Below are positions 6,001 through 64,000 of a DNA stretch of 64,000 nt, piece by piece. Position 1 is the stretch's first letter. Each line of letters starts with the position of its first letter. The DNA is taken from assembly GCA_905178155.1 (NCBI GenBank), contig CAJINV010000002.1, positions 6,720,771 through 6,784,770 of the forward strand, given 5' to 3'. A program made the translations under genes and the position numbers. Origin of the DNA: Amoebophrya sp. A120 (taxonomy: Eukaryota > Protista > Dinoflagellata). The notes under the pieces were generated by a model. The model made no database searches. It was not told the origin of the DNA and saw only the letters and a program-made list of their open reading frames with translations.

Positions 6001-9000
6001 CAGACCATCTACCCCACCATGGCGAACGACCACATGGCGGTCGCCTGGATGGAGCGCGGGCACGTGCAGCGGCGGGGGATCTTCGACAACCGCATGGACC
6101 ACGAGGCGGATGAGTACACTACGCATGTCGATGACGAGGAGATCCAGAAGATGCTGCGGGAGATCATCCAGCCCGGGCACCGGGGGAGCTTCCACGACCG
6201 GTTGGATGAGCGGCAGCTGCACTTGAACACAACGAAGGAGAATTTGAATCCCTACTTGTTAGCTCGTCCGATCACGACGGACGGGCGGTTGAAGTCCGCT
6301 CCGATCCGGAACAAGCAGTTGGAGAAGATCATCGCGGAATGCGAGGCGGAGCTGATCAACATCGAGCACGACATCCCGGAGATTCCGTCTTTCGTCGAAA
6401 CCTACAAGTACGGGGAAGTCGAGGGCTTCCGGCTCGGCGACATGGAGAGCCTGTTCCACGGGGTGCAGGACGACCCCGCGATCGAGAAGGAGAACCGGCT
6501 CCGGTGGCTCAGTCCGTCCTCCGGCCGCGTGCGGGCCGGGTCCTTCGAGGCGATCATGCACGAGCTGAAAATGTCGGATAAAATGGACATGGCCGCGGTG
6601 AAGCGGGGCGAGCGGGAAACGAGCAGGAGTTACACGTCGCGAAAGCTGGAGGCGATCGCGAAAGTCCCGGGATTTAACGACGAGTACGATGCGCTGCAAA
6701 TGTTTCCGGAGTTCACCGAGGCGATGGAAACGGGGAAGACCATTTTGGAGGAGCAAGCGGAAGTGTACAGGCAACGGGAGCAGGAGGCCATGGACGCCTA
6801 TCGCCGGAAAAAAATGGAGGGTGGAAAGGTGACTAACGTGAGCAGCGCAGTCGTGAGTGGACAACTACAGGCGGCGGAAGGGGAGGACAACATGGCTTCG
6901 ATGGCATCAGGGATGTCCTCGACGGGTTCAGCAGCAGCGCGAGCTTCCACAGCGTCCACTGGGAGTAGTGCCGCGGGTCAAGAAGCTCCTGCTGCACCTC
7001 CGCGGAAACCAACGCAGAACAATTTAAGCGGTGCTATGGGCGAGGGAATGAGCCTTGGCCCGCAGGTTGCGTTGTTTTACGACGAGGACGACGAACGGCC
7101 GTCTCGCGGCCGGTCGGACATCTTGGGCTCCGCGGGGATTGTTGATGACGACGTGGCGGGCGCAGCCAACATGGTCAGCATGTTCACCGGGGACGACGAC
7201 GACCCGGCCGGACACAAGATGGCCGCCAATTATGTTGACGCCACGCAGGAGCGACCGGTGATACAGCGCCCGACGGCGATACCGCCGAACGCCGTGGGGG
7301 GTGTGGGGGAAGTCATGATGAACCCGAATGCGCCCGCCCCGAGATCATTATACAGCGAGGGCAACCAGCAGCCCCCGAGTTCCACACATGCGCACTACCC
7401 GGGCAGCAAAGTTTCTGGAAATAGTAGAATAGGAAGCGGTCAAAATACTAAAGGCCCTTCATCGAAAAAGGCAACGGAACCCTACGCGGGCAGCAAAGTG
7501 TACTCGCAGCACCGCGACTCGTTCGCGAAACGGCAGCAGCGGGACCGCGACACGTCGTTGCGGCATTTGAGCCGGGACGAAAATGTGTTGGACGCGACGA
7601 ACAACAACAGTTCGCTCGACCGGGTGGGGAGAAACGACGCGACGTACCTGAAAGGGTTGGACCCGTACACGAAGGGCAAGCTGTTCGGGAACGAACAATC
7701 GATCGGCTCGCGCGCGGGTCTGGGCTGGAAGGATTTGCAACCGAACGCGCGCAAGAGGGACCGGGACCTCGACCGATTGGAGAACGAGATCCAGAAATCG
7801 ATCTGGAACGCGTCTTTGAAAGTGGAAGACTTGGAAGCGAAGGACGACGCGGTCCCGGACAGCTTTCAGGAGCAGGTGCCGCAGTCGAAGCGCGCGTTCG
7901 CGGCTTTTCTGGAGCGGTTCTGGCAGTTGGCATGCACCACAAATTACCACCTGGAATTGCGAGTAAATCTGTTGAAGCAGATTGTCGCCAAGGAAGCGAG
8001 GTACGAAACGTTAACCAGGGAAGAACTGGAACTACTGGACTGCAACAAGCCTGAGGAGGTTTTCGGCTTCTTCGAGAGCTCGATGCACACAGGGCAAAGA
8101 ACCCGCGCACGGCATTTTGAGGGCCTGACGCGGCGCGCGAGACGGAATTTGGAGGAGGAACACGTCTCCGTCGCGGCGATGGACTACAACGACATCATGG
8201 ATGAGAAGTTGAACCTCGAGCAGGAAATGAAGCAGCTGGTCGAGCAAAACGAGCAATTGGTCGCGTTGGAGAAGCACGAGCGCCGGCTGATGGAGCAGGA
8301 CATGCGGGAAATGCTGCACCAGACGCTGGTCTGGTGGGACACGTATAAACTGCAAAAGCATCGCACTCGTATAAATGCATATACAAATACTCTCAGCGTC
8401 AGAAATAAAATTTGTAATGCGGATTTACCATACGAAAATGCATGACTGCAATACGAGTGCGATACTTTTGCACAGGATAACACGTTGCGCAACCGGATTC
8501 TGGCCAAAGAGGAGGAGAACAGCACCATCTTGGAGCAGGAAGTGCACCGGTTGCGGTTCCTATCCACAGTAAATTTCCCGTACACGTACAAATTCGGAAT
8601 CTGCATGACAAAACTTGGGCTCTGCAAGGTAGCGAAACTTGTCATGCATTTTGTATGCCCATGTACAGGAAATTTACATTGCATAGCTCCAGTTCGAGGA
8701 CTACGCGAGCCACGAGGGCCGGTTCCGGGAGGAGTACGCCGCGTACCTGCGGGACCGGTCCGGCGTCGCGAAGGACCTGCAGCACATGCTGGGCTTGTGC
8801 ACGGTTTCCGAGGCCGCCACGATCCGGAAGGAAACGAAGATGGTGCGGCAGAAAACGCATCTGCTGGAGATCTTGCTCGACGCGCTGGAGGAGATCCGGT
8901 CGGTGAGATCGATGTACTACAACTTGGAACATTTCAGCAAACTGCCGGAATACTGGCGCGGCCAGGAAAACGCGGTGGGCGTCGACGCGCACAAACACGA

Positions 9001-15007: not shown

Positions 15008-18000
15008 ATGAAAAAAACAGACAAGATGATGGGGCGGGCTCAGGCGCAGCGGGGCTTTCGCTTTCCTTTTGTGGTTACTCTTGTCTTCGCGACGTGTTGT
15101 CGCTTTGCCTATGGTGGGGAGACTACGTCAGCAACATCACACGTGCATCTTGAAGATGTCTCCTCCCCGTCCGCGATCGAGGAGGATCATGTTCATGTGA
15201 GGATTCCTTCGGGCACGACGATGACTTCACCCCCAGAGCAACTTCGAGAGCCCGCTGTCAAAAACATTCAAGGCGGACCTAGTCCTCCGAACCCGTGCGA
15301 AGTGGCTCTGCGAGAGCAAGTGCGAGGCACGACTTTGACGCAATTCGGAAAATTACTGCTCTTCGGTACGGGAAAACAAATTCCATACGACGCAGGAAAG
15401 TACAAGTTTTGCCGAGCACTGGAAAACGCAAAGTATTTCCTGGCGGAGTTCCAGTACCAGTATGTCAACGGGGGTGAGGTGGAGGAGGAGCAACAGCAGA
15501 AGCAAGGATATCATGGCGCTTTTACGAAAGAGGACGGCACCAACGTTGTCGAAAATCTGCTTGCGCCAGCAGTTTCTGAAGTGCTTTCGCGAACGACCAT
15601 ATCACAGGATGATCGGGAGGACAAAATTCTTGAGAAAAACGATGGGCAGCACCCATTGTTCTCGTTCCCGAGAAACATCATTCTCGATGCCCTCAATCCC
15701 ATGCTTCAAACCGAAGACTTGTTGACGGGAAATAAACTGTTTGCAAACCCGGCGATAATTGATGCCCGCCGAGGACATCCGAATCTTCACGCAGCTCCGA
15801 ATAAAGCCTTGGCCATCCCGATGAAACTGGGTCTGTGCCTTCCCGCGACGCACGTGGTCAATAACAAGCGCCTCCCAGCTTGCACGAAACAAACCGTACA
15901 CGACATGCTGCAAGACTGGATGCGACCCAAAGCGGCTGCGCGAAGAGGCTCGAAACTTTCGTCCGCATCAGCAAGCCATGAAGCCGAACTGCAGACACAA
16001 ACCACGACCAAACTGGAAGATGAAGATCAAGATGATTCAAACACCCGTCTGCTCAGCGCCGTCATTCCCACCGATTCCAAGCAAAAGGACGCGACCAAAG
16101 TGCAAATCACCTGCCCCGAGGAGGACACGGTGACTTCCCTCGATGACTACGCGATCGCGTCTATCGGCTTTCTCGGGCTATTGCTTTTGACAGTCATTAC
16201 CGCGACCTTCCGGGTGCAGGTTTTCGAAGCTGCGATGGAAAAGTACGAGAAAAATGTCAGGCTGCAATCGGAACTGGATCGGAGACTAGTGGAGAGTTAC
16301 TGCAGCAACAGCGTGTCGACGAGCAGTTTGCTGAACAGCAGTTATCCAAGTTCGGAAGTCGGTGGTGGGGAAAATAATGATGTTTTGGTCGTCAACGCCG
16401 AGACCATTCAGACACCGAGAGGAATGGAAGATGGTACTCTTTCTAGTACTGAAGTAGATGTATGCAACTTTTATTGCCTAAGCGTAGTTAGGTAAATGGT
16501 ACAGACTTGTTTTTTGTGATTGATATTCAAGATTCGTGATGAGCAAGACATGTTGACAATTACAAATCAGAAACAGGCTCTACCGACGGCACGCCCAGTA
16601 CGGCATCGTCACCAAACGAAGCGGAGCCAACATCACAAGCTACTACACCTAGAGGAGCCACAGCAGCAGCACCTGCAGTTGTTTCGTCATCCTCTGCAAA
16701 ACAAGCAAAGCAGCTCAACACGGGCACCGCGTCCCGGCCGCTTCTCATCGTCGACACGCTGATGGAGCGACGGTTAGAGGAGCAGACCACCATCCCACAA
16801 CTCCCCCGTCCGATCGCCCCACCACTATGGGCGAAAGCGTTTGCGCTGTTTGGGAAGACAGGGACGTTGACGAAGTTGTTTCAGACAAATACGAACACAG
16901 GAAGAAAAAACAATTCGCCCAGAAAACCCCACACCAACGACCGGCCGACGGATTGTCTGAACGGAATGCGGGTTTTGTCTATGCTCTGGATCTATCAAAT
17001 GCAAAAATGTCTGGGTCTGGAAGAGTCCAAGACTTGTGATGCAGGTTTTCCATGACCCGTGAGGTCTGGAATGCGAGACCCAGCATGACAAATTCTTTGA
17101 GGTCTCTATCATGCCTTTCCTGCGTGAGAAACTCCCTCTCAGCTTGGTCAAAAGCGGACAGCTTTTGGCACTCACGCAACACAGATTTTTGCATCATTCA
17201 GATTTAGCATGACAGGTTCTAATCTTCCCGACCCAGACATTTCTACATTTGATAGGATCATCCTTGGCCATACCTTTCTCATGCCCGAAGGCCTCACCGG
17301 CTACAGCAACAACGAGGACATCGCGAGCATCATGCGACCGTTCGTGACCGCTGACTTCAGTAGCGAGACCGCGCCCTGGCTGATGTTTGTGCTCGCTGCG
17401 GAATTTGGGGTGGACAGCTTTTTCTTCATGAGCGGGTTTTTGCTCTCCTTGCTGCAACTACAAGAGCTGGAGAAGAAGCACGGGAAGAGGAGTATCAGGG
17501 ATAGAAGAAGTGGATCATCTGCTGAAAATTCTACAAATCGCAGGCCGTCCCTCTTCCAACACTTCAAAAAGTGGCTTTTTGGCTTGTTCCAGCGGTACGT
17601 CCGGTTGACCCCAAGCCTGGCACTGGCTTTGATGCTGTACTACAAAGTTCTCTACTTTTTCGTCGCGATTGGCGACCAAGGGAGCAGCGCTGTTCCTGTC
17701 GATGGTGATAGCATCGTGCAATCTGTCCCCTCCTCCGGGCCTTTCGTCCCCTTACTGCAAGACTCGATCAAGAACAAGTGCGATTCCTCCTGGTGGAGCG
17801 AACTCAGCTACACGGTGAATTTCATCCCCTTTGACTCCGACAAGGTCTGCATGGGCTGGAGCTGGTACCTGGGGAATGACATGCTGTTTTTCGCAGTGGG
17901 CACGGTAATTGTGCCGCTTTACTTTCACAAGTCGAAACTGCATGGGGTTATTCTCCTGCTCACGTTTCTCCTCGCCGCTGTCGGGATCACGACCTACCTG

Positions 18001-20011: not shown

Positions 20012-21274
20012 GAGCGTAAAAAATGCGGTTGTGTCATCAATACAAATCTCACAAACTACAAAGGCGCGCAGTCCCAGTCCTCGAAAAAAAGGCGGGTCGA
20101 ATTGTAGTACGGGGGACGCCGGTCCCGGTGCCGCGATGTCTGTCTGCGCGCCAGCTCGTGCTTGAATTTCCCTGAGTTGTAGTGCGTCTTGGGATCTCTT
20201 CGCAGATGCTGTGCGTGCGTGTATTTATATGCAGGGATGATCTTTCACTTTCTTGTGAGGGCGTATCTGAAGAAGCAAATGGATCTTCTGAGGACTGTTG
20301 TCGTGGTAGGCGTAGGCTCATAACAACGACATCAACGTTATGCCCAACGATCGACAATCACAATGAACATGAAAACTGCACCCCTAAGAAAGTAGGCGTC
20401 ATTCAATTTCGGAATTGAAAGTGCAGCATTCGTATTCGAAGAGCGGACGTGGGTCTTGACAGTCATCCTTTGCTCGTGGAGTGGGGGCCAAGAAGTCGCA
20501 CCGGCCTCATCAGAGATATTTCTCTTGCAGCTGTACCTGCTGGCTTTGTTGCCAGTCGTCCGACACAACTTATTGCTTGGGATACAAGAAGGTCTAGATC
20601 TGTTTGGACGTTTGGATCTGATGTTTCTAATCGCACAGCACCCAAATAATGCCTTGACGGATCCACGTCCACTTCTTCGCGATCCCGATCTCGTTAGCGT
20701 CACTATTCTTCAGTTTCGTATGACATGCGCCATTACCCTGTATGGCGAGTCGTGTTGCCTGTCAGGATGATAGAGGTAGCAGGAGTCGTCTTGAACAAGA
20801 TGATCGTCAGCGTTATATAGGAATGAAAGCTGAAGCTGATCTTTTACTGCGAGTCTCGACTAGCCCAAGTCAGTGTGAGGCGGGCGCCACTAACCTGCTC
20901 CACTGGTTGAACGTGAAGGAACCTGATCGAGTCGTATCGTGTCGCCACGCTGATGTAGATGCTCAAATAATTGATTCATGTTTCAGTGCACAGGGACAAA
21001 GTAATCGTCACGGAAAAAACTGAAAGTGAAACTTCTCATCGGATCGACATTCGAGCTATTCAATTGAGGCAAAATCTACGACGACGACCGCGATGTCTGC
21101 TTTTCGCTACAGAAGATTGATAAAGTAAGCAAATCATCTTCCTCCTCGCACAAGTTTTTTTGTTCTTGGACTCGGCTCAGTCATCATCTACTTCATACAT
21201 CATTTCTCATACTCGATCATTATCAATCTACTTCAACTTGTACTGCTTCAGCTGATACAGAAGTAGAAAACACA

Positions 21275-22069
21275 ATGCCGCCGCCGTCATCTGTCGGTGC
21301 AGATGCAGGGCGCACTGGCCGCAGTCGGAGCCCCAGGCGACATCCGCAACGGGTTGAAGATCTTTTCCAAGACGACTCAACACTGCAGATGGGAGGGCTT
21401 GCCGGAATATGGAAAGTCAAGAACGACGAGATGGACGATGAAGTTCCGAGTATGGTGTGGGTCGACACAGACGGTCAAAGTATGCGATTTTTCAAACAAG
21501 ATAAATGGAAGATGGCACGCGGCGCAGGGAGTCAGAAAAACACCATCTTCAGTGTCAAAGCTAAAATTGCGAACAGGATGTGGGTCGCGAACGGTGTCCG
21601 TGCCGACGCCGAGAGCATAACGTGGCAGAACGAAGCGGATGCGGATGAAAAAGCAACCTGGATCCGTAGTAAAGAACACGCGCTGCCGTCCTGCTCCGGC
21701 GCTAGCTCTCGCCAAGTGCCCGGCAATGGCGCGGAAATCAATCGGCCGATTGTTAGCGCGGACATGATCGACGACGGGATCGACCGAACGATTGCGCAGG
21801 CAGAGGAGGCCTTCCAAGAGACGACCAAGGCTTTTCAAGAAACGACCAGAGCAGCGCTCGAAAAGCTGCGAAACGGGCTCCAGTCCGCGAAAAAATGTGA
21901 GGTCGTTCCGAGCTGCAAAATTTGCTTGACCCGCCCGGTTTCCGTCGTCCTTCTCGGCTGCGGGCACACGCTCTGTAACGATTGCGCTGATATTCAGTGC
22001 AAACCCGGCAAAGTGTGCTTCGCGTGCAAGGTTCCCTACGCGGGGCGGCAGCAGATGTTCTTCTCGTAG
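21275..22069 (+). CDS. C-terminal C3HC4 RING-finger protein, array copy 1 (putative E3 ligase)
   Basis: CKICLTRPVSVVLLGCGHTLCNDC...CFACKVPY...MFFS; N-terminal RSRSP. Confidence 0.9.
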   Translation: MPPPSSVGADAGRTGRSRSPRRHPQRVEDLFQDDSTLQMGGLAGIWKVKNDEMDDEVPSMVWVDTDGQSMRFFKQDKWKMARGAGSQKNTIFSVKAKIANRMWVANGVRADAESITWQNEADADEKATWIRSKEHALPSCSGASSRQVPGNGAEINRPIVSADMIDDGIDRTIAQAEEAFQETTKAFQETTRAALEKLRNGLQSAKKCEVVPSCKICLTRPVSVVLLGCGHTLCNDCADIQCKPGKVCFACKVPYAGRQQMFFS

Positions 22070-22995
22070 GGGTTCACGGGTTTGCAATCTCTCTCGTTGG
22101 TGTCAACAAAGCGTGATCCTGAAAACAGTTAGATACCAAACTGACATTCGTGCTTTTCCTATTGCCCCCAGTATGATCCTTTGCTTTTCAGACTCAGAGA
22201 TGTAGAAACTAACCCGTCAGCACTTTGAGCTGTAATGTCGTTCAATCAGAAGTAGAAGTTTAGCACCTCCTGCACCTTGTCCCTGTGTTACCATCTCTGT
22301 GAGTCGGCCCTGAGACGCGACGCAGATGCTGAGAATTCCAATGCCCTGTTCTCCGACATCCAGCTGTGTTTTGAAGATGTGCGACGGATCAAAGACGAGC
22401 TGGTCGCGAGATTTCAAAAAAGATCTCTCTGGTGTTGTCGTGATGTTGCGATTTGCTCACTCTTGTCCCCCCTGCAGCTGTGTTACCTGCTACGACGCTT
22501 GGTCGATGACACAGTCAAGAACATGTTTCTGTTACTATGTGTAGTAATGCCAAGGCGGACTTCAACTGAAATTGTGTTTGTAGTGGGCTTGAAGGTCCCC
22601 AGGCAAGAATCTGAGAGAAGGTGCAGCGGCCGCTGAAAAGAAATATCTCCCGCGATGTACAACTATCGCAGTAGCAACACGGTTCTTCATGCGATGAACA
22701 CAAACTTCTCCAGTCCCAGTGTTGTAGTATCACGACTACCTTTACCTCCTTTTAGATTTCGTGTTGTATCTCTCTAGTGCTGCGGAACCCTCGTGCGGTA
22801 AGCTCGTCATTCAATTACGACAACGAGGGCACTTCCGTGCCGCCCTCCTTTTTGTTCGAAGCTATGAGCCCCCCTCGTCGTCCGTACACGAGATGCCGCC
22901 CAAAGAGCAGAAGTACACTACGCCGGCGGGCACTTCGGGAAGCCGAGGAGGCCGCTCGGCGACGAGCGCGCGATCACCCCCCGCGGGAGCAAAAC

Positions 22996-47500: not shown

Positions 47501-50500
47501 GCACGAGCAGGTACGGTGGAACAAACTACAAGCGGAATTATAAACGGCGCTTTGGCCGCCGCCGCTTTTGGTGATTTCGGACGACTGAACATCGCAGGTG
47601 GAACTAAATCAGCACCCGCAGTAGAAGTATCAGACGGCGACATGCGCATGCAGCAGGATTCCTATGGGAACGGCAGCAGTTTAGAGCTCGCGAAAGCGCT
47701 GGGGAACGGAAAAATCCTCACGAAAGACCAGTCCGTCTGGCCGGCCACGACGTTCCTCCGCGTAGAGACGCTGTGCTTCACCGAAGACGCAGTGGCAAAT
47801 AAAGGCAAAGAGGTGGAAAAAAGCAGGCTGAAGTTAGAGAATGAACTTTTCCCCGCCTTGATTTCCTCTTGTGGGACCAGCTCGACCGTGGAGCCAAATT
47901 GCTTTTTCTTTGACGTCTTTAAATCCACGGGCTTCGGAACCTCGACCGAGATCGTAGCTGCTGGCGGAGCGGGAGCCCCAGCCCCCACCTCATCAACTTC
48001 AGTAGACAGCAGATACTACATCCTCCAGCAAGGGTACAAGGACCAAGAGACCGTGAAGTCCGAGCACGAACGAGCTTCTGCCTTCCAAGCTTTGAGCTCG
48101 TTCCTCTCCGACCCGAACGTTGCGGCTCTGTTCGAGAAGGGTACTTCTAACGAAGGGGGAGATGACCAGCAGAGCAGTACTTCTTCTAACGCTCTGCAAC
48201 TGTACAATGCCGGGGAGTGGCCGCATGCGGTGGATCATGGCAAGCCTTTGCACGCTGTGACCCACTACTTGCTGTTCACCAATAAAGCTGATATCTACAG
48301 CGAGCTCCTCCAGAATGCCTTGGACGAGCTGCAATTCGAGCTGATCCCTGCGTTGCGAGGCGAGTGCTACGACGACCCCATATTGAATCCCTGTCTGCGG
48401 TTCGAGGTTTTTCGTGGCGCGCGGGAGGCTCGGAAGCCCGGCGCGGCGGAGACGCAGCAGCACGAACTCCTCATGTTCCACCAGGTGTTTGAAAACGAAC
48501 AGGCCTGGCAAGACTTCCAGACCAATTCCCAAGCCTGGAAAGACTACCAGACGGCATTGGGGAGACAAGACTTCAAACAAATTATTGTCCAGGAAGAGAA
48601 CAACGGAGACTCTTTTTTCGAAGGCTCGGATTTTTTTCTCTACCGAAGCACTGCGGCATTTGCCCGGGACGAAGTGAAACAGTGGCAAACAAAGGTGCGG
48701 GACAGCGAGGTGGTTTCAGACACTGGTGTGTTGGAGTTTCAAATCGCGGTGCTGGATCATCAACAACCTTACGCCGGCACCGAACAAGACGATCGTCTTA
48801 TTGCACTCAAAGCTGCAGCGGCGTCGTGCGTTGAGGCGCGAGTCAAAATGGAAGACCTTCACGTCCCCGCACTGCAGGAAGCGTGCGCAGATTCCGCCGG
48901 GTGTCTCTACTTCGACGCTTTTCGAAATTACGTCGAGACCACCACACCTGCAGCATCGCCCTCAGCAGGACGAGCGGCAGCTCCAGTAGTTTCCTTATCT
49001 TCCACTCCAAAGTCGCAATCGCTCCAGAACTACACCTACTCGCTGCAATTCGCCTTCCAAGACGCGCTTGCGCGGACGACCTTCTATGGCGTGCTCAACT
49101 GTTACATTCTCAAATGTTGCATGGGTTTGTGATGCAAGAATGGCAAAAGTCAAAGCAGGGAGGTTGCACCTGTAGCGTCACAATTTCCGCACAGATTTAG
49201 GTGCTGTTTAGCCTTTCCAAAATTTGTCATGCGAAGTAGCTTCACCCTGTGAATGTTGATGCTCGTTTTGCATTACAAATCATGTAACAGTTGAGAATGT
49301 AACGTTTGAGAACGCCATACCTTCCAGAGCGCAATCGCGTTCACTTCCTACCAGAAATTCGTCGACGAAACCTTTGCCGCACTACCCACCTATCAAATGT
49401 AAAAATGTCTGGGTCTGGAAAAATGCAACCTGTGATGCTGCGTCTGCATTATCCAAAAATCTCTATTGCATGAACAGCAAAAGGGGTCTGGTTTTGGCCA
49501 CGGCGAGAGGGCATTTCTCATGCGGTATAGGCACCAGAAAGCCCTCACAAGATCTGTGATGCTAGGGCATGCATCGCAGACATCAGGAGTCACGCAGAAT
49601 GTGCATGACAAACCTTGCATCCTTCCAGACCCAGACACTTTTGCATTTGATACGACCTGCCTCAAGTTCCCAGCGGACGGGCCAACTCTCGGGAAAATCG
49701 ACCCGGTACCCAGGCGCGAATTCGGGATTTTGAATTTACCGACACTGTTCAGCGTGACCAATAAACTGCAGTTCAAGCCCGACGCGGACTACGACAAGCT
49801 GAGCGCGGCGATAGAAGATCTAACAAAAAACCTGTTCCCCGCGGTGCGGAAAGCTTGCGAGAAGGAAGTTCCGCCTTTTCCCCGCGGTGCGGAAAGCCTG
49901 CTGTGTGAACGCTACAACGTGTTTGAGAGACAAGTGGACGTTGTTTCTACGGGGGAAGGTAAGAGTACAACATCAAGTCCTATCAAGGCCGTGCAGTTTC
50001 TTACGCAGGAACTGTACCCCGACCGGTATGCGTACACACAACTGATGCTGCAAGACGACGCGCTGAAGCAATTGCAAGCAGCCGTGGCACGGTACAAAGC
50101 TGATGGCTTAGTGGAGGAGGAGTCCATCAGTAAAACCGCAGATCAAAGCAATCTTCTCGCCCTGCAAGCCGGGGACTTCGCGCGACTAAACGGCCAAACC
50201 GACGCCGACCTGCGCAGCCAAAGCCCGCCCGTCGGCGGCCTGCAGACCGCACGGGCGCTGTTTGATAAAACGACCGCACAGGACGTTGACCCCAATGCTG
50301 CCACCTGGGGAAAGGTCGAAACTCTGCGGTTTACGGATGACGCGGTGGAGAACCGGGCGGATGATGTGGCAGCAGCGGTGAAGGAGCTGGAAGAAACAGT
50401 GCTCGCGGATTTGGTGACCGCGTGCAAAACCTCGACGGACTGCCTCTTCTTCAACGTGTTTCGGAGTACCGGATTCGGCACCAGTATTGAACAACACCTG

Positions 50501-53500
50501 CAAACTTCTCAAACAAGTACGTCTGAAGATGTTCTTGGCACGACCGGAAGTAGTACAACCAGTGCAGGGGCGGCTGGTCGTGAGGGTCGTGAACACAAGT
50601 ACAACAAATCCTACTCTCTCCATCAGGCCTACAAGAGCGAAGCAGCAGCGAAGACGGCGGAGCAGGCTGATGCTTTCCAGAAGCTGGTAAAGTTTCTCAC
50701 AGAAAGCGACTTCGCGGGACTTTTCGCTGTGGACGAAGAAGAAGAACAGCAGGCGTGCAATAAACTCCAGCTCTTTGGTATCCCACGAAAAAACTGTTTC
50801 ACTGTGATGGTTTTGCAAGATCCGCATCACAAGTTTGCTAGACATGACACAGAAAATTTGCCATGCGCGTTTTCCAAGGGAAAATACGCGTAAAAATCCA
50901 ATGCCTTGCAGGTGTAGCAAGACAACTAGTTCTGTGTTCCATTCTATGCATCACAAGTTCACAGTGAAACAGTTTTTTCTTGCGATATTTGGCGCCGGCC
51001 AGTGGCCGCGAACATTCAAGGACCCGCGCGTGGTCTCCCTGACGCAAGCCTTCGCGTTTGTCTCGGACCAGCCAGGTGCAGGTTATGCATTGCAAAAGTA
51101 TCGTACTAGTATAAATCGCATGACAAATTTTATCAGGAAGAACATTGGAATTTGTAATGCAGATTTGGGTAGGAAACCCGATTTGTCATGCATACCTGCG
51201 ATTCATACGAGTACGATACTTTTGCAGTGGATACAGGTGACCTCCAGTTGAAGGTCCAAAACGCGCTCGATCGGCTGCAATTCGAATTGATTCCGGACTT
51301 GCGCAAAGCTTGCTACAACTATACTGGTCCACCTGGTCCTGGTGCTAAAAAAGGAATTATAGAACAAGGAGGACTAGCAACAGCGGATGATGATGTCCCT
51401 GATGTTGAACAGAATCCTTGTCTGCGTTTCGAGGCGCACCGCGGGAGTGCGTTGTTGCGAGAGGATGCGCAGAAGAAACAGAAAATCCCGCACGAGCGGA
51501 TCATGCTGCAGCAGGTTTTTCGTGACAAGGAGGGCATGGCGGCGTTTCAAAACGGAGCCGCATGGACGACTTTTGTCGCCGCGCTCCAGGAATGGGGAGA
51601 GAAAGAAAAAATCCTCGATGTGTTGCCTCCAGAAGCAAGAACAAACGCCGCTGGACGAACTACAAGGGCAGCAGCTCCTCCTACGGATTCTACTTCTGTT
51701 GATGACGCTGGTGCAGCTACTACAACAGGAACATCAGCTTCTGCTTCGCTGCCAAGTTCTTGGAGTGCTTTTCTAGACTTGTCGTCGTGGGGGCGCGGCC
51801 GCACGACCGCCGGTGCACCGTTTATTCCGTCAACATCTTCTGTTTCGGCAAACGACTGGTTTTTGGAGAACGACCTTTCCCAGGACTTCGTCATCCCGAG
51901 CACAAAAACCTCAGAAGACCACGCCAGCGGAGCAGGACCACCTTCGTACCAGTTCACTGCTCAATATGCCCGGGACTCGCAGCTAAACGATTGGAAAAAA
52001 CGCGCATTCGACAGCTCCGTGGCTGCGACAACACGGGTCTTTGCGTTCACAGACGATCCGGCGAAGAGGGACTCCGTGAGGAAGATCACGGTTGAATTGG
52101 AGAGCACGCAGCTAGGCTTTTTGTTCGCTGCGTGTGGCGAGTCGTCAGCGGCCTCCGCAGCTTCATCATCAAGTGGGTGTCTGTACGTCGACGCCTTCAA
52201 GAAGAACGAAAAAGTAACTGCAGCAGGAGGGTCTACAACTACTACTTCTCTCCTCGCAGTTGTAGAGGAAGGTCAAGATGATGTTTTGACAGGCAGTGGT
52301 GCATCTTCCTCTTCGTTATCAAGAACCGCTACAACTACTACAACTGGCGCCAGCGTAACCTATGTTTTGCAGGAGGCCTTTTCCGATCAAGAAGCTTTCT
52401 TTGCTTTCCTGCAACGGACGGCGGCGTTCGAAACGTGGGTGAACTCACCCGAGGTCCAGGCGGTGATGGTGCATGATGATCTGCCCCCGGGTCGTCGTAT
52501 GTATGATAGCTTGCCAGGTGCAGCAGCCCGGGACGGAGACGACTTCGTCGGTAGACAGTTTGGCCTCCAGGACTTGCCGAGCCTGTACAGTTTGAGCAGT
52601 ACCATCCAATTCACGTACGGTGCGGGAAACAACCTGGCGGACAAGTTCCGCAGCGAACTGTTCCCGGCAGTCAAAGCAAGTTGCTTGCAAAAATTGAAAG
52701 CGTTCCGGAAGAGGGACTACATTGCCGACGACCGATTGTTCTGCGAGCGTTGGAGCTTCTTTGAAGACAGTGCCGTTCCTATTGCAGGAGGTAGTGGTGG
52801 GAGTAGCTTGCCGCAATCACAACTTTTACACGTTGACAAGGCACATGACGACAAAAATTTTCCTCCACTGGAAGGTACCAGTATCAAAGATGTGGAGCAG
52901 GGCCAACACATCGCCAACCTGACCTTGCTAGACAAAAATGTTCCCACCAAAGAGAACGCATTTTCACCACTGTTGCGAAACAAATTTTTGGAGCCCCGAA
53001 AGAGCGGCACAAGCAGGACACTTTTATCTGATAAAAACGAGCAGCTGCAGCTCAACAAGAAAGAAGCGCCAGCATCTCCTGCTGCCCCCCTCTCCACAGA
53101 AGACAAGGAGTTAAAGGGGAGCCAGAACATCGTGAAAGTGGTTCGCTTCACGACGCACGAGGTCTATTATGAGAGTGCACAACCACAACCCCGTCCCCCT
53201 CGTCCCCCTTAATTGTCATGCAATATACCTCCAAATTCACGGTCACGGTGGATTTATCCACTATTCGGCTTTACCGTGTGGCACTGCTTGCATGACAGAC
53301 TCCGAAAGCCATAACAGCGTTACTATACAATCGCTACGTAAAACTAAAAACTTTGTCATGCAAAAGCTGCATCAGCTACAGGTACAGCTTCAGCATCTGT
53401 GCCTCCGGGACTCGTGTTGCTGCGGATGCGATCCAAATGAGGGTGAGGGGGAATTTTATTGCACTCTCATATTTATCCAGACCGCCACGCGTTTCTCGAG

Positions 53501-56500
53501 TATGTGAGGACCGACGCAGCGTTTCAAAACCTGATACAAGCAGTGATGGACAACAAGGACCTGATTGATTTCACAAACGGCCGCACCAACATTTCGTTTC
53601 TTTCCAAAGACCACGACGGCACGGGCCTTATGCCCGGTGGGGACTTTGTGCGATCCCAGGCACTGTATTCGGTCTCTGCGCCGCTCTCGGACGCTCTCTT
53701 CCGCGACCAGCAGCCCGCATACGCAAACGGGTCTACTTTACCTGCGGCACAGGTGCTGAGCGATTCGCTCCCGCAGAGCGAGAGCGTGTGGCACCCCCAG
53801 TTAGGACCGCAGGAACAGACGTCGGGGGAGGTTTATGTATTGAAATTCAAAGACGACGTGCCGGAAGCGCAGATTGCGCACGCCGTAGCGTCGTTGGAAC
53901 AGGATGACGGTTTTTTTCCATCCTTGTGCGAAGCATGCCGACTGCAACCGTCTTGCTACTACTACAACGTGTTTCGCAGCACGGGTTTCGGCACCTCTAC
54001 CGATGTCGTAAGGAGCGCAGCGACTGACTACAGCAAATCCTACACGATTCAAGCCGCATTTAAAAATAGCGTGAGTGCAGTTGATCAATTCGAGCAGACT
54101 CCGGCGTTTAGTAATTTCAAGGCCTTTCTTGAACAATCGTCTGACTTGTTCCAGCAGGACGCGTCATATAAGTCCCTCCAGCAGTATCGCGAGGGACAGT
54201 GGCCCCACGTTGTGGACCCTTACGCGGGCACGGTCAGGAGTATGAATTTGCTCTTCACCTTCGCGGAACCCGACGAGACAACGGACGCGGGCTTGCAGGC
54301 GGCAAATGACATCATTGCTACCATCGACGAACTACAATACAACCTGATCCCAAACTTAAAGGACGCGTGCTACGGGCCGCAGGATGAAAGCACACTGCAG
54401 CTGTACAACAAGAAGCACCTCTACTCAGCTGGACAAGAACAGCCGTTGCTCGGTGCAACACAAGAAGCCAGGAGGAGCGCACCTCCTGCTTCTGCTGGGA
54501 GAAAATTTTCTGGGCAGCAGAAATTCTCGCCCCAGGTAGAAGACGTAGCTGGAGAAGGTCCTCTACTTCGCGGGGAGCCTGAGCGTGAGCGTGAGCAAGG
54601 AAGAAGTTACATTAACTCAAACTCAGGTCGTGGTCTTGCTCCTGTGCTCACCGCCGACCTAGATAAACCAAAAAGCGAAAACGTCGACCCGGCACAGCCG
54701 GGGTGTTTGCGCGTCGAAGTCTATGCCGACAAGAACGCGGAGGGGAGAATCAAGACGGTGCTCTTACAGGTGGTTGTGCGTAGGGAGAATTGGCCTCAAA
54801 TGGTAGACGACGACCACGGCGTGCTCAAACCGATCCTGGATAAGCTCAACGAAAGCAAGTCTGCTGGGTTATTGCAAGAACTCGACGCGGACCACGAGGT
54901 GCTCGACAATTTGGTGAATACGAGTGGTTCAATCAGGTCTGGAAACGACGCCGCGGACAACTTTGGATTTCTGGTTAGCGGAAAAATGACCGACTCGGCA
55001 GCAAGCGCCTTGGACCTTGTGGTCTGGCAAGATTCAACATCCACTACTTCGGTCGCCGCTGCGAGGACCGCGTTACTGCACGATAGCAATGTTGTTGCGG
55101 AGACGATTACTCTCGCCTTCAAGCCAGGGGTTTCTGACGGGAAGGAATTCACTGAAGTGTGGAAGGAGCTCAACACAAACTTTTTCCCCTCACTATACAA
55201 GGCTTGCTACAAGGACGTCGACGCTTCTTCTAGAAGTACTGCACCCGGTGTTGAAAGTGATTCCAACTCGGAACTAGTCTTTACCTCTCCTGGCGCTTTA
55301 AAAACGACCAGTGCGGTGAGGAGCACGACGAGACAGCAGGCGCAGGTAGAAAGGCGAACTAGGACATCAGAGATAACTACGCCGACAACAAGAACTCCTG
55401 ACTGTCTTTATGCCGACGTGTACAACTACACCCTACCTTCAGACCAGCGGGGCTATCTGCTTCATTTTGCGTTCGCGAGTCAAACCGCTCGCGACCGGTT
55501 CTTCGCGGCTGCCGGGCCCAAGAGCTTCCAAGAGTGGGTAAAGAACGACGAAACGCTACAGAAAGTTCTTAGGAAGCCTAGCCGCACACTCGCTCGCTTG
55601 TCGCAGTTCGGCCTGGAAAATCTGCCGGGGCTCTTCAGCGTGCAAATGAAAATTCACATTTTCGATAGGATCGTGTGGGCAGAGGTGCTAAGGAAAGTCC
55701 AACAGATCAAGAAGGACGTGTGTATCCTGCAGTATCACAGCCGTGACCTGTGCGAGCGGTTTAACGTATACCTTGCGAATAGTGGCGTTTATTCCGTGAA
55801 ACTCAACTATCCCCATCCCCTTCGTCATGCCACCCACACAACATTTAGGAAAGTCTGTGTTTGTCATGCAAAAAATTATAGATGGGGATGGTTAGAAATT
55901 TTCACGGAATAATGTTGTAGCGGGTGCCACAACTGACTATTTTGTGACCACGCACGAAGTCTACCCCGACGCTTACGCCTGGCGGCAGCATGTGTTGAAC
56001 TCGGCTGCATATCAGGAACTGCTCAAGTCCGTCAAAAGCGCTTACGACAACAAAAACATTGATGCAAGTGACACCGTGCTTTACGGCTTCACGAATCCCA
56101 ACATCGACGAGAAGAAGGTTCTATCAACTGTAAAAGTGTCTGGGTCTGGAAGATTGGCAGCTTTGTCATGCATACTTTGCATGACCCGTGAAGTCTGTAA
56201 TGCATGCACGAGCATCACAGATTTTTAGAGGGCTTCCTAGTAATGCCTATTCCGCATGAGAAAGCCCCTCTCCGTGTAGCCCACCCGCCAGGAGTCAAAT
56301 GGTACTACTACTACTCGTGTAGCCCAAACTGGAGTCCTCTTGCAGGTCACGCAATACAATTTTTTTTTGAATCCAGAGACAGCATCACAAGTTTAGAATC
56401 TTCCAGACCCAGACATTTTTGCATTTGATAGGTCCCCTTTCCCATGACCGGCTACCTTCTCCGCCAGGAAACCGAGTCGGACGCGAACATGCGGACGCGG

Positions 56501-58267
56501 GACGGGGCGGGTGCCGCGAAGGACCGCAGTTTGGCCCCTGCGTTGGCACTTCACGACCATCTGCCCAACCAAACGAAGTGGCCGGAGCCGCAGGGTAGAT
56601 TGAGCCCGGGGGGACAGACGTTGATACTGCAATTGAATCCGAAACTGTCCAAGAAAAAACTGTGGAAAAAGGTGAACTTCTTTTGTTGCTGTAGTATTTT
56701 TGCAGAAGATACAAAGATGCCAGTTGCAGCTACGCTAGGCATGTTGTTTGATATGCATCCGGGATACGCTCCGCTAGCTGCAAATATCGTGTTCTGATCA
56801 CGTGCTAGCCAAGCAGGACAGGACTTCTCTAATGTGCAGAAGATGCTAGTAAAAATAGTAATAGATATAAAATGCGTAGGCGAAAAAAATGTATAAGCTT
56901 AAGTAATCGAAGAGCTAAAGCGCAGAGTAACTGTAACACAGTTTTTTTCTTCGATACGAGTTGATGGAGCTCGCGGCCAGAGACCCAGATGCGGCGGCGT
57001 GGCTGCAAATGTGTACCAAAGTGAAAAGTGCCCCTACCTCCCCAGAGCAGCGACATATTTGTAAATACGAAAAACTTCTACTTCTCCGTGGGAGCATTGC
57101 GTTTTTGCCTCCTTGCGTGTGTCCTTAATAGCGTCACAAGTCTCTTTTCCCAAACACCGTGATGCTGCACATTGGCAGCCGCGGCAGCACAGCAGACGCG
57201 GTATAATTTGTCAACACGCTCCTGGACGAGCTGCAAATCTCGCTCAGAAAGATTCTGAAAAAAGAGAGCGTCGCACTTCTTTCATGCAAGACAGAGAGAC
57301 TCCAACTTCTTTGTGCTGAGGACTGTGCATCACAAGAAAAGTTTCGCCCGTCTGGTGGTGGGGGTTGGGCATGATTTCAGTTTGATATTGTGTCAAAACT
57401 ATTTGGAGACCCAGCTCCTGCCCAACATCATGGACACCGATTGCGGAATTTACGATCCGGGAAATTTCAACAAGAACGATTGCATCTACTGGAATGCGTT
57501 CAAAAGTTATCCATTGCAAAAGTAACGTAGAAGTGCAGCTCGTACCAGGTGCTACTTGATTTTTGCAGTGAGTCATGCATGACAGATCTCGTCCGGCTTT
57601 CCAGTCTATATCAGCCTTGCAAAGAGCGTCACTTTTGGTTCTGAAGAATTTGCATTTGTAAATGCAATTTCAATTATTTCTCCTACGTACTAGGATCGCA
57701 TCGGTGCGAAAACGATACAACTTCTGCAATGCATAAAGGTTGGGGGTTCACCAACAAGGTCGGGCGGGAAAGATATTATATCTTGCAGGAGGCCGACGGT
57801 GTCAAGGGTCTTTCGACGAGGAACTACGGAACCGAGTGGCAGAACTTGGTAACTTTTGTCCAGGTATCAAATGCGAATATGTCTGGGTCCGGAATAAAGT
57901 TGGAACTTGTGATGCTGCATTTGGATTCTAAGAAAAGGCGTGTTGCATGAGCAGCCCAATTTTTGCTGCGCCGAAAGGGCATTTTTCAAGCGGGATTTGC
58001 ATCAAGAAGCCCTCAAAAACTCTGTGATGCTAGCGCATACACCACAGATATCATGGCTCATGCAAAACGTGCATGACAAAGCTGCACTCAACATCCAGAC
58101 CCAGACATATTTGCAGTTGATACATGAACAAAGCGTACAATGACCAAAAAGGGCACCAAACCTTTCCTTTGCTTGAAGAGGGGAGCAATTTCTACAAATA
58201 CGTAAGCGAAGAGCTTAACTTCGAAAGCAGTCCATTTGAAGATGCTAATTCTCCATCTCGTCCTTGA
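44570..58267 (+). CDS. Giant (~3,535 aa) type II membrane protein with 16 Cys-paired ABM-like repeats; exons 44570-45804, 46051-49084, 49325-49390, 49658-50778, 50993-51083, 51239-53167, 53477-55789, 55917-56121, 56436-56678, 57401-57507, 57741-57864, 58128-58267
   Basis: Single TM segment (WCVAIWLLVIVGSSAVVAGVVVAVYYL), PIIPV stalk, then repeats such as LQFELIP.LR..C...CLRFE.F, QPGCLRVEVY, CERF..FE and TQEVYPDR; all joins are in frame and the exon total is 10,608 nt. Confidence 0.8.
45374..45488 (+). repeat. 18-bp coding tandem repeat encoding (PIIPV[I/T/E/V])n stalk
   Basis: ccgattataccggtgatc-type units, about 6 copies. Confidence 0.9.
45805..46045. mobile_element. Introner, family B
   Basis: Family B TIRs; perfect ATTCT direct repeat; joins ERIL|FHEVY. 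Confidence 0.95.
49085..49319. mobile_element. Introner, family B
   Basis: Family B TIRs; perfect CCTTC direct repeat; joins TTF|QSAI. Confidence 0.95.
49391..49652. mobile_element. Introner, family A (reverse orientation)
   Basis: Family A TIRs; flanks CCACC/CGACC; joins ALPT|CLKF. Confidence 0.95.
50779..50987. mobile_element. Introner, family G
   Basis: tatcccacgaaaaaactgtttcactgtga / tcacagtgaaacagttttttcttgcgata; perfect TTTGG direct repeat; joins QLFG|AGQWP. Confidence 0.9.
51084..51233. mobile_element. Introner, family C (150 bp)
   Basis: tatgcattgcaaaagtatcgtac...gtacgatacttttgcagtggata; perfect CAGGT direct repeat. Confidence 0.95.
53168..53471. mobile_element. Introner, family H
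   Basis: tatgagagtgca...tgcactctcata; flanks TCTAT/TTTAT; joins HEVY|PDRH. Confidence 0.9.
55790..55911. mobile_element. Introner, family I (122 bp)
   Basis: tattccgtgaaa...tttcacggaata; flanks GCGTT/ATGTT; joins NSGV|VAGA. Confidence 0.85.
56122..56430. mobile_element. Introner, family A (forward orientation, with an internal insertion/duplication)
   Basis: Family A TIRs; flanks GGTTC/GGTCC; internal repeated cgtgtagccca. Confidence 0.9.
57508..57735. mobile_element. Introner, family C-like
   Basis: tatccattgcaaaag...cttctgcaatgcata; flanks AAAGT/AAGGT; joins FKS|WGF (cf. FKSTGF in sister repeats). Confidence 0.85.
57865..58122. mobile_element. Introner, family A (reverse orientation, degenerate flanks)
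   Basis: Family A-like TIRs; flanks CCAGG/CATGA match at only 2 of 5 positions, but removing element + 5 bp restores the frame. Confidence 0.8.
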
Positions 58268-60319: not shown

Positions 60320-63300
60320 ATGTCCTCTGCTAGAAAACAGATGAACAGCTCGGGCTCTGCCAATGCGTACCACTATCGTGGCAGTGCCGCCATTCCCGCC
60401 GCCACGCCCACGTACCAACACCAGCAGCAACAGCGTTTCTATCCGGCGTCCAACGAAGAGATGGACCACCTGGAAAGTGCAGAGCACCCGCTGCTGAGCC
60501 ACCAGAACCACACGGCGCGAGCCGGAGGAGCGTGTGCCGCCCCGACGGGTTGGAACATGGACGAAGCCATGCACTACCAGCGCACCATATCCACGGTACA
60601 ATTATTTTTCCCGGACACGACGTACAGATGCGGTTTTTCATCTGCATAACAAAGTTTGACGCCGTTGATCCTAGTAGTTCTTGGCATGACAAGTGGCAAC
60701 ATGCTTTGCGTTGGCGAAATTTGTGATGCATTTTGTACGACGTCTGCGGGAAATTTGAATTTTCTGTGGATACACCATCCGGGCCGGGACGGCATCCTCG
60801 TCTCATGACGCGGCGGCCAATGGGGCGGGCAACAAGAAGTCCTGCATGGCGCCCTGGGTGGTCGCCTTGCTTGTAGTGCTCGGGGTGGCTGCCCTGATTG
60901 GTATCATCGTCGCTATCGCGATTGCCTGCAAGCACAAGGAAGATGAAGACCACAAGGGCACCGTCTTCAGTTTGACGCCCGTGCTTATGTTCAAGGCCAC
61001 GGACGACAAAACTACACAAGACACGATCAAGGCTGCCTTGACTGATTTGAATGACAACCTCGTGCCGGCGTTGCGCAAAGAATGTTATGAAACGCAGAAG
61101 GACACCTGCATGCGGTTCGAAGCCTTCGCTATCGAGAATGTGCCTGTTGCCAACGACGCTAAGCTACAGTCGCAGGCGAACTTCCACATCGTCACCAAGG
61201 GTAGCTCGGGGATGGATTCGCTGCAGAAGTCGCAGCCCTACCAGGCGTTGTTCGTGACCGCCGTGAAAAAGTACAAGGACGACCTGAAAATTATGGACGA
61301 AGACGTTGACTACCTGGTCCCGGGAGACGAAGACAACGACCGCAACGGCTCCAAGTTCCCGGACCATTCCACGACGGATTTCAAGATCAAAGTCGGGGAT
61401 AACAAGGACGAGCAGAGCAGCGCCAAGGCCGCCATCGAAAACAAGCCCGTGGACTGGAAAACGCTGGCTGTGAAAGACGCGAACCATCCCGCGCACGGCC
61501 AGGTGACTACCGTGATCTTCTCCTCGGACAAGAAGGAGGACGCCGACGTGCAGAAAAATATGGACACGCTGGAGCAGACGCACGTGCCGGCGCTGACCGC
61601 CGCCTGCTACGACAACAAATCGGGCGCCAATCCCCCGAACTGTTTGTACCTCGACGTTTTTAAGGCCTACACGCAGGACTGCATCAAGAAGGGGACCACC
61701 GGCGGTGATTGCAAGCAGTGGGTTCACAGCACCGTGTACACCTTCCAGCAACTGTTTCTGACCTTCGACGCCTACGACCAGTGGGCGAAGGGCGACGGCG
61801 CTAAGGCGCTGACCGATTTTCAAACCTGGGTCCAGTCTTCCGACAGGGGCACGCACCGCTACGTGACCATCGATAGCACGGAGTTCGGCTTCTCGCATAG
61901 TACGCCGACGCCTCCAACACCGCAGGAGGGCGATTTGGTTTCCCTGGTCATGAACGTCACCTTCAAGGATGAGGCCGGCATTACGAAGTTGGAAGCCGCG
62001 GACAAGGCCAAGCGTGGCGCCTACGTCGCGAACCTCGAGAAGTTGCAGTATAATCTGATTCCCGCCCTGAAGAGCGCCTGCTACGGAACTACAGGAGCAG
62101 GGGCCGCGCCAGGGCTCACTGGGTGCCTCCGTGTGGAAGCGTTCGCGACGAAGGATGGCAGTGGCACGCGCGTCACGGGCACTCTTCTCCACGTGGTTGT
62201 ACGAAAGGAAAACCTGGACACGTTGCAGCAAAACGCCGCTTTTAAGGCAGTGGTGGCCGGGGGGGAGTTCGTCGCTATGGCGAACATGTTTGTCGATAGC
62301 GCCCACACACTCGACAAGACGCCGGTTGCTGCGACAGCAAAGAATCTGACAATGACACTAGCTGACAAAAAAACCACGGTCGACTCGGCCAAAGACGTAG
62401 CGGATATNTCTGGGCCTGGGAATCGAAGGGCAACGTCCTTGACTACCTCTCATTGTCTAGCGGTGGTCCGTACCAGCACATTCCGCTCCGTAAGCCTTCA
62501 CCGCAGGGGGGCGATTTGGTTTCCCTGGTCAACCATGTCACCTTCCAGGATGAGGCCGGCATTACGAAGGAGGAAGCCACGGACAAGGCCAAGCGTGGCG
62601 CCTACGTCGCGAAACTCGAGAAGTTGCAGTACAATCTGATTCCCGCCCTGAAGAGCGCCTGCTACGGAACTACAGGAGCAGGGGCCGCGCCAGGGCTCAC
62701 TGGGTGCCTGCGGGTGGAAGCGTTCGCGACGAAGGATAGCAGTGGCACGCGCGTCACGGGCACTCTTCTCCACGTGGTTGTACGAAAAGAAAACTTGGAC
62801 ACGTTGCAGCAAAACGCCGCTTTTAAGGCAGTGGTGACAGAGCTGACGGGGGAGTTCGTCGCTATGGCGAACATGTTTGTCGATAGCGCCCACACACTCG
62901 ACACGACGCCGGTTGCTGCGACAGCAAAGAACCTGACAATGACACTAGCAGACAAAAAAACCACGGTCGACTCGGCCAAAGACGTAGCGGATATCGATTC
63001 ATGGCGAGCCGCTTCGCAGGACAGCACCGTCGCCGGTGCGGTGTGGGCCTTTGTGCTGCAGGACGACAAAGAGGGATATGCGGACGCCGTCACGAAGCTG
63101 GAATCCGAACTGCTGCCCGACATGATCGCGCTCTGTGACAGCGTTTCTGATTGCCTGTACACCGACGTTTTCAAGATGGACAATAAGACTCCCACATCGC
63201 AAGGCACTCCCAAGATTACCACTTACATTCTGCAAGTCGCGGCGAAGACTGCCGCAGTTCTGAAGGACGAGTATTTCAACAAAGCAGGCACTAGTGATCC

Positions 63301-64000
63301 GGCCCCAGCCGAGAAATTGCAGCAGTACCTCAATACAATCAAAGAAACCGTCCTGTACACGGCTCCAGGTGCTGACGTAGAGCATGGACAGCAGATTGTC
63401 GGGGGAGTTGTCAGCGCGGGAACCGCCGTACTACAAGCGCAACCAACGTACGACAGTTACCAGCAGTTCGGTCTGCGGGATCTACCGGGGCTCTTCAGCG
63501 CAACCTATCCTGTGTAAAAACGTCCCCATCTTGCTTTTGTTGTCACGCAAATTTGCATGATGGAAATGTGAATGTCTTCCATGCGGAGCGGTCCCATGTT
63601 GAGACGCATTGTCTAGTAGCTCTGTTTGAAACAAATAATTTCTGATGCTGCAATGAATATAAGATAACGCTACTGGATTTGTGATGCTGCTGCACTAGCT
63701 CTACTAGCTGAACATGATTACATTCTGAGCCCAAACTTGTCATCCGCGACAGCCAGTCTGTTTATGTCATGCGCGACAGCCAAAGTTCTAAGTTTGCTGT
63801 TTTGTCTTGCAGATTTCCCAACTTGACTCTGGGGCGGGGACGTTTTCACATAGGATACGACTACGAAGATAGTCATGAAGGATAGCGTGACCGCTGACCA
63901 GGCGAAAACAGTAGTTGATGCGTTGCACCAGTTGTTTGTTAACCTGAAGCAGAAAACCTGCCTAGTTGCGAACGTCAACTGCGAGCGTTTCAACCTGTTG
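60320..64000 (+). CDS. Second type II membrane protein with ABM-like repeats (paralog of 44570-58267); runs off the window end; contains an assembly N at 62408
   Basis: TM segment WVVALLVVLGVAALIGIIVAIAIA; repeats LVPALRKECY..CMRFEAF, LQYNLIPALKSACY..GCLRVEAF, QFGLRDLPGLFS..CERFN. Confidence 0.8.
60588..60772. mobile_element. Introner, family D-like
   Basis: tatccacgg...ctgtggata; perfect CACCA direct repeat; joins QRT|IRAG. Confidence 0.9.
61917..62996 (+). repeat. Recent tandem duplication of a ~490-bp domain-coding unit (61917-62407 and ~62497-62996), separated by an N
   Basis: Copies nearly identical but with several substitutions and one small indel. Confidence 0.8.
63506..63857. mobile_element. 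Introner, family E
   Basis: tatcctgtgtaaaaacgtcccc...ggggacgttttcacataggata; flanks CAACC/CGACT; joins FSAT|TKIVMK...CERFN. Confidence 0.85.

Follow-up and report, generated by a model that had tools for sequence, protein, structure and literature searches.

A helically spaced internal motif shared by the TAT...ATA introners of Amoebophrya sp. A120, a predicted binding site for their mobilising protein

In the marine parasite Amoebophrya sp. A120, a dinoflagellate, repeated non-canonical introns (introners) number in the tens of thousands and form 1,954 families; the paper that describes them doubted transposase action, according to the sections of it cited here (PMC7789003). In a later classification, as represented by its text and by 56 of the 58 A120 rows of its dataset sd07 (PMC12130899), the label 'TIR DNA, unknown' is given to most A120 families, TIR denoting terminal inverted repeat. 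Family 38, of about 808 bp, is entered there as a TIR element with integrase-like homology and '5-bp TSD, TA/TA Termini' (sd07 row 580; TSD, target-site duplication). We analysed 64,000 nucleotides of A120 contig CAJINV010000002.1 (positions 6,720,771 to 6,784,770; this whole stretch is called the window, and positions below are counted within it). Introners themselves are already known; the new aspect is an internal motif that their families share, together with a rule for its spacing. We propose that the array of motif copies is probably a binding site, predicted from sequence, at which one mobilising protein common to all TAT...ATA families would contact double-stranded DNA.

The elements of the window resemble the A120 introners in the features given in the cited parts of PMC7789003 and PMC12130899: they start with TAT, carry an A-run about ten bases in, have inverted ends and 5-bp direct repeats, and are removed in a non-canonical manner. 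The boundary repeat of 3-5 nt that marks A120-type introners is present. As short, multi-copy units that are flanked by TIRs and a TSD and lie in both orientations relative to genes, they have the form of miniature inverted-repeat transposable elements. The family lengths here (109, 150, 157, 209, 235, 252-263, 280, 308, and 321) find counterparts among the A120 rows of sd07 consulted (107, 149, 160, 209, 234, 252-260, 278, 305, and 317-321; PMC12130899). Twenty-five elements were delimited without the motif, using TAT...ATA ends, a TIR score, and the flanking direct repeat, and four of them were chosen by eye among lower-scoring rows. The 26th (57014-57387) was recognised once a joint in putative RNA indicated it; the joint-bearing contigs come from runs X3 and X4 of one sample and are called putative RNA because their RNA nature was guessed.

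The strict motif GCATBACAA (B, any letter but A) occurs 56 times in the window, on both strands, against 2.07 ± 1.32 copies (maximum 7) in 100 dinucleotide shuffles. The form with the excluded letter A at the variable position occurs once, and GCATGACAA is the most frequent 9-mer of the window (33 copies). Fifty-four strict copies lie within the 26 elements (6,115 nt; 8.8/kb), 53 of them in the 25 elements delimited without the motif, and 24 of the 26 elements have at least one. The remaining 57.9 kb holds two (0.035/kb), at 3430 (exonic) and 11771 (intergenic). A preliminary description of this DNA had proposed a motif shared across introner families while allowing that it might not be enriched over background; the excess over the shuffles and its concentration in the elements bear the proposal out. 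Twelve of the 14 motif coordinates given there coincide with exact matches within 1 nt, and the other two, 35019 and 53290, are the variant GCATGACAG. The element at 4552-4850 lies to the left of the range then covered (8344..63857). The 26 elements are given below; element strand is not assigned, and the sign after a motif position is the strand of that copy.

4552-4850, TAT...ATA element, family H-like by eye; strict motif 4632+
8344-8479, family D element; motif 8412-; flanking repeat ACACG/ACACG
8561-8685, family G element; motifs 8603+, 8639-
16993-17254, family A element; motifs 17034-, 17083+
23609-23923, family B element; motifs 23650-, 23786+, 23819-, 23867+
24000-24254, family A element; motifs 24040-, 24124-, 24166-, 24214+
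34929-35163, family C element; motifs 34971-, 35068-, 35114+; variant 35019+
41051-41180, family J element; one-mismatch variant only; skipped in putative RNA
41217-41523, family B element; motifs 41258-, 41393+, 41426-; skipped in putative RNA
41575-41724, family D element; motifs 41617+, 41648+, 41682-; skipped in putative RNA
42371-42520, family D element; motifs 42413+, 42444+, 42478-; skipped in putative RNA
42592-42853, family A element; motifs 42631-, 42716-, 42804+; skipped in putative RNA
43074-43333, family A element, ending ATG; motifs 43115-, 43287+; skipped in putative RNA
45805-46045, family C element; motifs 45901+, 45950-, 45996+
49085-49319, family C element; motifs 49127-, 49224-, 49270+
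49391-49652, family A element; strict motif 49603+; three variants
50779-50987, family E element; motifs 50824+, 50948+
51084-51233, family D element; motifs 51118+, 51152-, 51183-
53168-53471, element with a TIR family F-like by eye; motifs 53213-, 53353-; variant 53290+; skipped in putative RNA
55790-55911, short element; motif 55861-; skipped in putative RNA
56122-56430, family A element; motifs 56163-, 56382+; variants; skipped in putative RNA
57014-57387, decayed element (TAC...ATA), family I-like by eye; motif 57327+; 379-nt putative-RNA joint
57508-57735, decayed element; variant GCATGACAG only; skipped in putative RNA
57865-58122, family A element; motifs 57907-, 58071+; flanking repeat decayed; skipped in putative RNA
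60588-60772, family G-like element; motifs 60684+, 60721-
63506-63857, family H element; strict motif 63679-; variants

The family D elements at 41575-41724 and 51084-51233 are 99% identical and lie in opposite orientations.

A metagenome scan with the family-A TIR gave 146 loci that share one assembly prefix and come from 16 of 64 collection parts (496 kb after merging); among the top hits to the window, these loci matched in repeats alone. Automatic calling yielded a sample of 398 elements, 21 from the window and 377 from the metagenome loci, with three calls in shuffled sequence at unchanged thresholds; family A is over-represented by the sampling design (196 of 398). Exact, flush 5-nt repeats flank 257 of 355 strong TAT...ATA pairs that had been found without using the repeats (the next class numbers 29, and 6 bp is absent). 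The end logo shows TAT, which the caller imposes, C or G at position 4, and A at 0.60-0.79 in positions 11-15. When the motif was masked, the 398 elements fell into 25 clusters, and the motif is present in all 11 clusters with more than one member. A position weight matrix (PWM) refined on 22 group consensuses widened the motif to GCA(T/A)(G/C/T)ACA(A/G)(A/G), with 127 sites against 1.6 in shuffled sequence; 395 of the 398 elements have a PWM site, and most have four to six. The long TAT...ATA candidates among those listed proved to be nested insertions or chance pairings of the ends of neighbouring elements. Nested insertions of 0.2-1 kb were seen in family-A elements of the metagenome loci (L086:6787-7758, L065:3862-4492, merged L031 9473-10727, and L064:571-1051). 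At three of them the flanking duplication (19, 13, and 21 nt) overlaps the motif, and two of the inserts are 70% similar across 249 nt. They are possibly a non-LTR (long terminal repeat) or SINE-like element that prefers the motif; the cases are few, and motif sites cover much of the element.

The preliminary description had suggested that distance from the ends and periodicity be examined, and both turned out to be constrained, with a fixed end distance and a phase of about 10.5 bp. Each of the 12 TIR families entered the test as a single consensus, which gave 61 internal sites in total, and 2000 null trials were run. Same-direction pairs lie 31-33 bp apart in 10 of the 12 families (null mean, 1.75; maximum for the best window, 8), the cosine reaches 0.53 at 10.5 bp (null maximum, 0.42), and the outermost site lies 32-48 bp from the element end at 21 of 24 ends (null maximum, 15). 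Opposite-direction pairs prefer 15-17 and 46-49 bp (25 versus 5.4). In four of the five site classes, sub-family-weighted spectra have their peak at 10.3-10.7. Around the sites, TGC half-sites peak at -10/-11, +21/22, and +39/40, and GCA peaks at ±31/32. No 10.5-bp period was found in the element lengths. A single alternating lattice of 16 bp runs through families C and F from one end to the other and is broken in the other families. The lattice raises a tentative extension to which we give little weight: one protein may polymerise on motif copies that alternate at about 16 bp and repeat at 31-33 bp, and may thereby mobilise all TAT...ATA introners regardless of TIR. Such a protein would be domesticated or host-encoded, because no transposase has been reported in A120. 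If this were true, the creation of non-canonical introns would be host-assisted and would follow a single DNA code retrievable with a short probe.

The motif is also conserved within families. Among copies, identity reaches 0.93-0.96 in the GCA columns and 0.92 in column 8, against 0.73 at position 5 and 0.72-0.80 at most flanking columns; a second peak at -10 coincides with the inverted half-site. Motif columns exceed other columns in 19 of 22 groups and are conserved as much as or more than the TIRs. Differences between copies avoid the motif (0.066 versus 0.186 for all differences; 0.021 versus 0.033 for private ones), and shared differences avoid it more than private ones, as expected if copies with a broken site stop spreading; alignment error could inflate this contrast. 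In a comparison meant to reveal decay after insertion, copies with mismatched target repeats show no excess divergence in any class compared with those with intact repeats (50 versus 253 copies). The TIR itself resembles the motif: among starts 1-29, positions 4-13 score best against the internal PWM (-1.8 versus -7.6 ± 1.1 in shuffles), and two of the 24 ends score 12.0 and 13.7.

Could the motif simply be a neutral leftover of one ancestral element, whose descendants became families by deletion, duplication, and drift? The families are not 'otherwise unrelated', as had been thought; that wording was too strong, since they have in common TAT(C/G) termini, the A-tract at 11-15, the 5-nt repeat, and residual similarity. 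Both the spacers (-5.1 versus -7.2 ± 0.3) and TIR positions 14-31 (-4.4 versus -6.9 ± 0.35) are more alike across families than shuffles are, and mirror partners exist for 22 of the 61 internal sites, a pattern also shown by long imperfect TIRs. Neutral descent, however, fits poorly with motif columns that are conserved in most groups when BLAST with the motif masked finds no similarity between families at E 1e-5, or with a motif that has one free position and a spacing window 3 nt wide. We consider neutral descent improbable. Common ancestry, which had been offered as a possible sole explanation, is likely part of the history, and it leaves the selective retention of motif and spacing unexplained; common descent combined with selection on motif and phase is the likely course.

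Removal of the elements was examined in the putative RNA. Among the joints listed (41051-58122), at least 11 elements are skipped with exactly one 5-nt repeat, and one contig additionally skips a GT-AG intron. All 11 listed joints are compatible with a single 5' cut 1 nt before TAT, a position pinned by two joints with differing repeats (ranges -1..0 and -2..-1). The 3' cut follows four bases of the right repeat, and the likely donor is N+TAT(C/G) with an arbitrary acceptor. This donor, one repeat base plus TAT, resembles GTAT, the most frequent start of predicted ordinary introns (30 of 92; introns within 21000-40999 are prediction only). The top 5' sites of family 1 in the cited part of sd07 are GT, CT, AT, and TT (PMC12130899). 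No run recorded as RNA was listed as containing the window. Two raw RNA runs were uninformative: X9 yielded 16 reads and X10 yielded 8, each of them a partial match to a repeat, and no exon was covered. In X9 (2026), a few reads match family-A ends near 42590-43330 with other flanks, possibly from other loci or another strain. A separate 316-nt putative-RNA joint at 56645-56960 has CT..AG ends and no flanking repeat, unlike both introners and GT-AG introns.

Since the 11 joints fit one cut 1 nt before TAT, the symmetric TAT...ATA ends would account for the orientation independence of the elements. The earlier idea that it follows from the presence of the motif on both strands did not hold: 32 elements confine their sites to one strand, and these still occur in both orientations (14 versus 18). 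The same count bears on a role of the motif in pre-mRNA, whether by recruiting a dedicated splicing factor or by supplying arms that pair and so lengthen an exon-joining hairpin. Such a role would suit elements removed without GT-AG ends in an organism in which, according to the cited part of PMC7789003, U1 small nuclear RNA was not detected. In the predicted RNA fold, 33 of the 65 window sites are base-paired to a second copy of the motif, and sites in GT-AG introns are strand-skewed (24 versus 8). With the host strand assigned from codon use for 282 of the 398 elements, however, the transcribed strand carries 630 sites versus 703 on the other. One-sided groups insert both ways (7/4, 10/8, and 3/3; one group is skewed, 3 versus 14), and the free letter agrees between mirror copies in 38 of 93 comparisons, below the permutation null of 46.7 (family A accounts for 75 of the 93). 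Direct pairs three DNA turns apart cannot pair, and the two window elements with only a variant site (41051-41180 and 57508-57735) are still skipped. We therefore regard a pre-mRNA role as very unlikely. The look-alikes RBFOX UGCAUG and ApiAP2 TGCATGCA were set aside, motif position 5 being free.

The preliminary description had suggested a common binding site for a transposase or for an excision or splicing factor. The splicing half lacks support because 87 of 107 predicted GT-AG introns without element similarity have no motif site and because the one-strand elements lie both ways. The transposase half is the best fit, on account of the helical spacing, the fixed end distance, the conservation with one free position, and the likeness of TIR positions 4-13. 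The mobilising protein would probably be an integrase-like DDE transposase or its helper. Several protomers would bind one face of the helix at same-direction sites three turns apart, with an inverted site often about 16 bp off, and would bend or bridge the 110-320-bp element, bringing its two ends together for excision and insertion. Copies losing sites would stop spreading; motif and spacing would thereby be maintained, and new families would arise as the TIR bodies and the spacers diverged. Splicing would depend on the ends, with one repeat base plus TAT as the donor, and not on the motif.

Several results weigh against a mobilising protein of this kind. No transposase and no autonomous partner with the same ends were found in the about 0.56 Mb examined, and in a Pfam search of 88 open reading frames (ORFs) of at least 280 aa, host domains only and no transposase or integrase were matched. 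The cited sections of PMC7789003 likewise report no transposase in A120 and argue against general mobilisation by a transposase. A clean 386-bp TAT...ATA element (L091:2404-2789), with perfect 25-nt arms and a 5-nt repeat, has no motif site. The opposite-direction spacing is not significant at the family level after look-elsewhere correction (p 0.08), family-weighted spectra that include singletons mostly lack the 10.5 peak, and the residual similarity means that the 12 families are not independent lineages. Finally, the motif is enriched beyond recognisable elements too: long non-coding DNA (152 kb) has 34 strict copies versus 3.0 in shuffles, about 11-fold, the 107 GT-AG introns hold 13 versus 0.7, and the site-bearing introns include five 31-33-bp pairs with no recognisable TIR. 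Introns were counted only up to 400 nt because the gene finder calls intergenic DNA long introns, and some of the set are wrong. The motif-free element carries repeated ACATG words of its own, and a C-5 cytosine DNA methylase ORF lies in the same metagenome assembly (L038:591-2090; PF00145, E 1.7e-37).

The enrichment in long non-coding DNA and in the 20 site-bearing GT-AG introns leaves room for a host factor. In this reading, the motif may be recognised by a DNA-binding or chromatin protein of the host, and introners may use that protein as an accessory bender, or bound copies may be better tolerated or transcribed. The depletion of private differences from the motif and the lack of a reported transposase would also fit, and the presence of one site alongside divergent TIRs is in keeping with a factor under no pressure to co-evolve with every TIR. 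Against this, PWM sites are 10-30 times rarer outside the elements (1.57 and 0.55/kb versus 17.5/kb), the tip of the TIR is itself motif-like, and the site-bearing GT-AG introns resemble relics: 11 of the 20 start with GTAT compared with 20 of the 87 site-free introns, and one has sites at 42 and 75, which are element positions. A host protein as the reader of the motif appears unlikely. The following predicted GT-AG introns of the metagenome loci have a 32-33-bp motif pair and no recognisable TIR, and are likely old introners that became ordinary introns.

L072:2367-2479, predicted GT-AG intron
L044:3347-3494, predicted GT-AG intron
L065:4569-4742, predicted GT-AG intron
L047:1731-1890, predicted GT-AG intron

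Viral contigs and prokaryote genomes were also searched. Isolated matches to the inverted-pair pattern numbered 22 in the viral contigs, and 21 of these comprised the two sites alone. The direct-pair pattern gave 36 matches there, one of which passed a loose TAT...ATA check, and the family-A TIR gave none. There were no matches in the prokaryote genomes searched.

An internal cross-family motif or a spacing rule is not described in the passages and supplement text of PMC7789003 and PMC12130899 consulted, nor was either found in the portions of PMC9860276, PMC11453091, and bioRxiv 2020.10.14.339549 consulted. Among the matches listed in a literature search for the motif, one was an Amoebophrya paper, with the letters inside a primer. 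The motif and its spacing rule unite nearly all TAT...ATA families as one superfamily. The array provides a search signature, both for an autonomous element and for decayed introners that have become GT-AG introns, and a defined DNA bait for the mobilising protein. It also separates the likely mobilisation code, the internal array, from the likely splicing code, one repeat base plus TAT.

Some features of the surrounding genes were noted. The region 21270-29590 is a tandem array of five or six paralogous genes with a similar Cys-rich, RING-like C-terminus (by eye), and introners occur only in the copy near 22900-24670. Two long paralogous genes with repeated domains (44570-58200 and 60320-64000) are introner-dense. 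At 62340-62830, a coding segment is duplicated around a single N (62408) with a predicted frame break, possibly an assembly seam.

Internal copies of a terminal transposase site are found in the ends of Tn7, Mu, and IS21 and in the inverted/direct repeat (IR/DR) ends of Sleeping Beauty; unlike introners, these elements are autonomous, have longer sites, and do not form introns. Among eukaryotic systems, IS3EU/GingerRoot, which has an integrase-related DDE transposase, shares TA..TA termini with the elements, and families B, C, and K start with TATGG, like its fungal TAYGG..CCRTA ends, according to the cited parts of PMC10045372, PMC6839031, and PMC12730594. Its target duplication is usually 6 bp, as opposed to 5 bp here, and the elements are therefore not filed there; the word 'subterminal' is absent from the main text of the GingerRoot paper. 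Ginger1 and Ginger2 require TG..CA termini, as far as the sources consulted describe them, and were rejected for elements with TAT...ATA. CACTA (En/Spm) was also rejected as a class, the elements having neither CACTA termini nor the 3-bp duplication given in the cited part of PMC2613891. Still, the array is comparable to the subterminal repeats of CACTA elements. The same source describes En/Spm TNPA as binding subterminal repeats that are required for excision, and in both cases a short motif is reiterated, direct and inverted, inside both ends, in what would here, too, be a cis-acting array for mobilisation in trans. Each CACTA family has its own motif; in the introners, a single motif, spaced by whole helical turns, is common to families whose TIRs have diverged.

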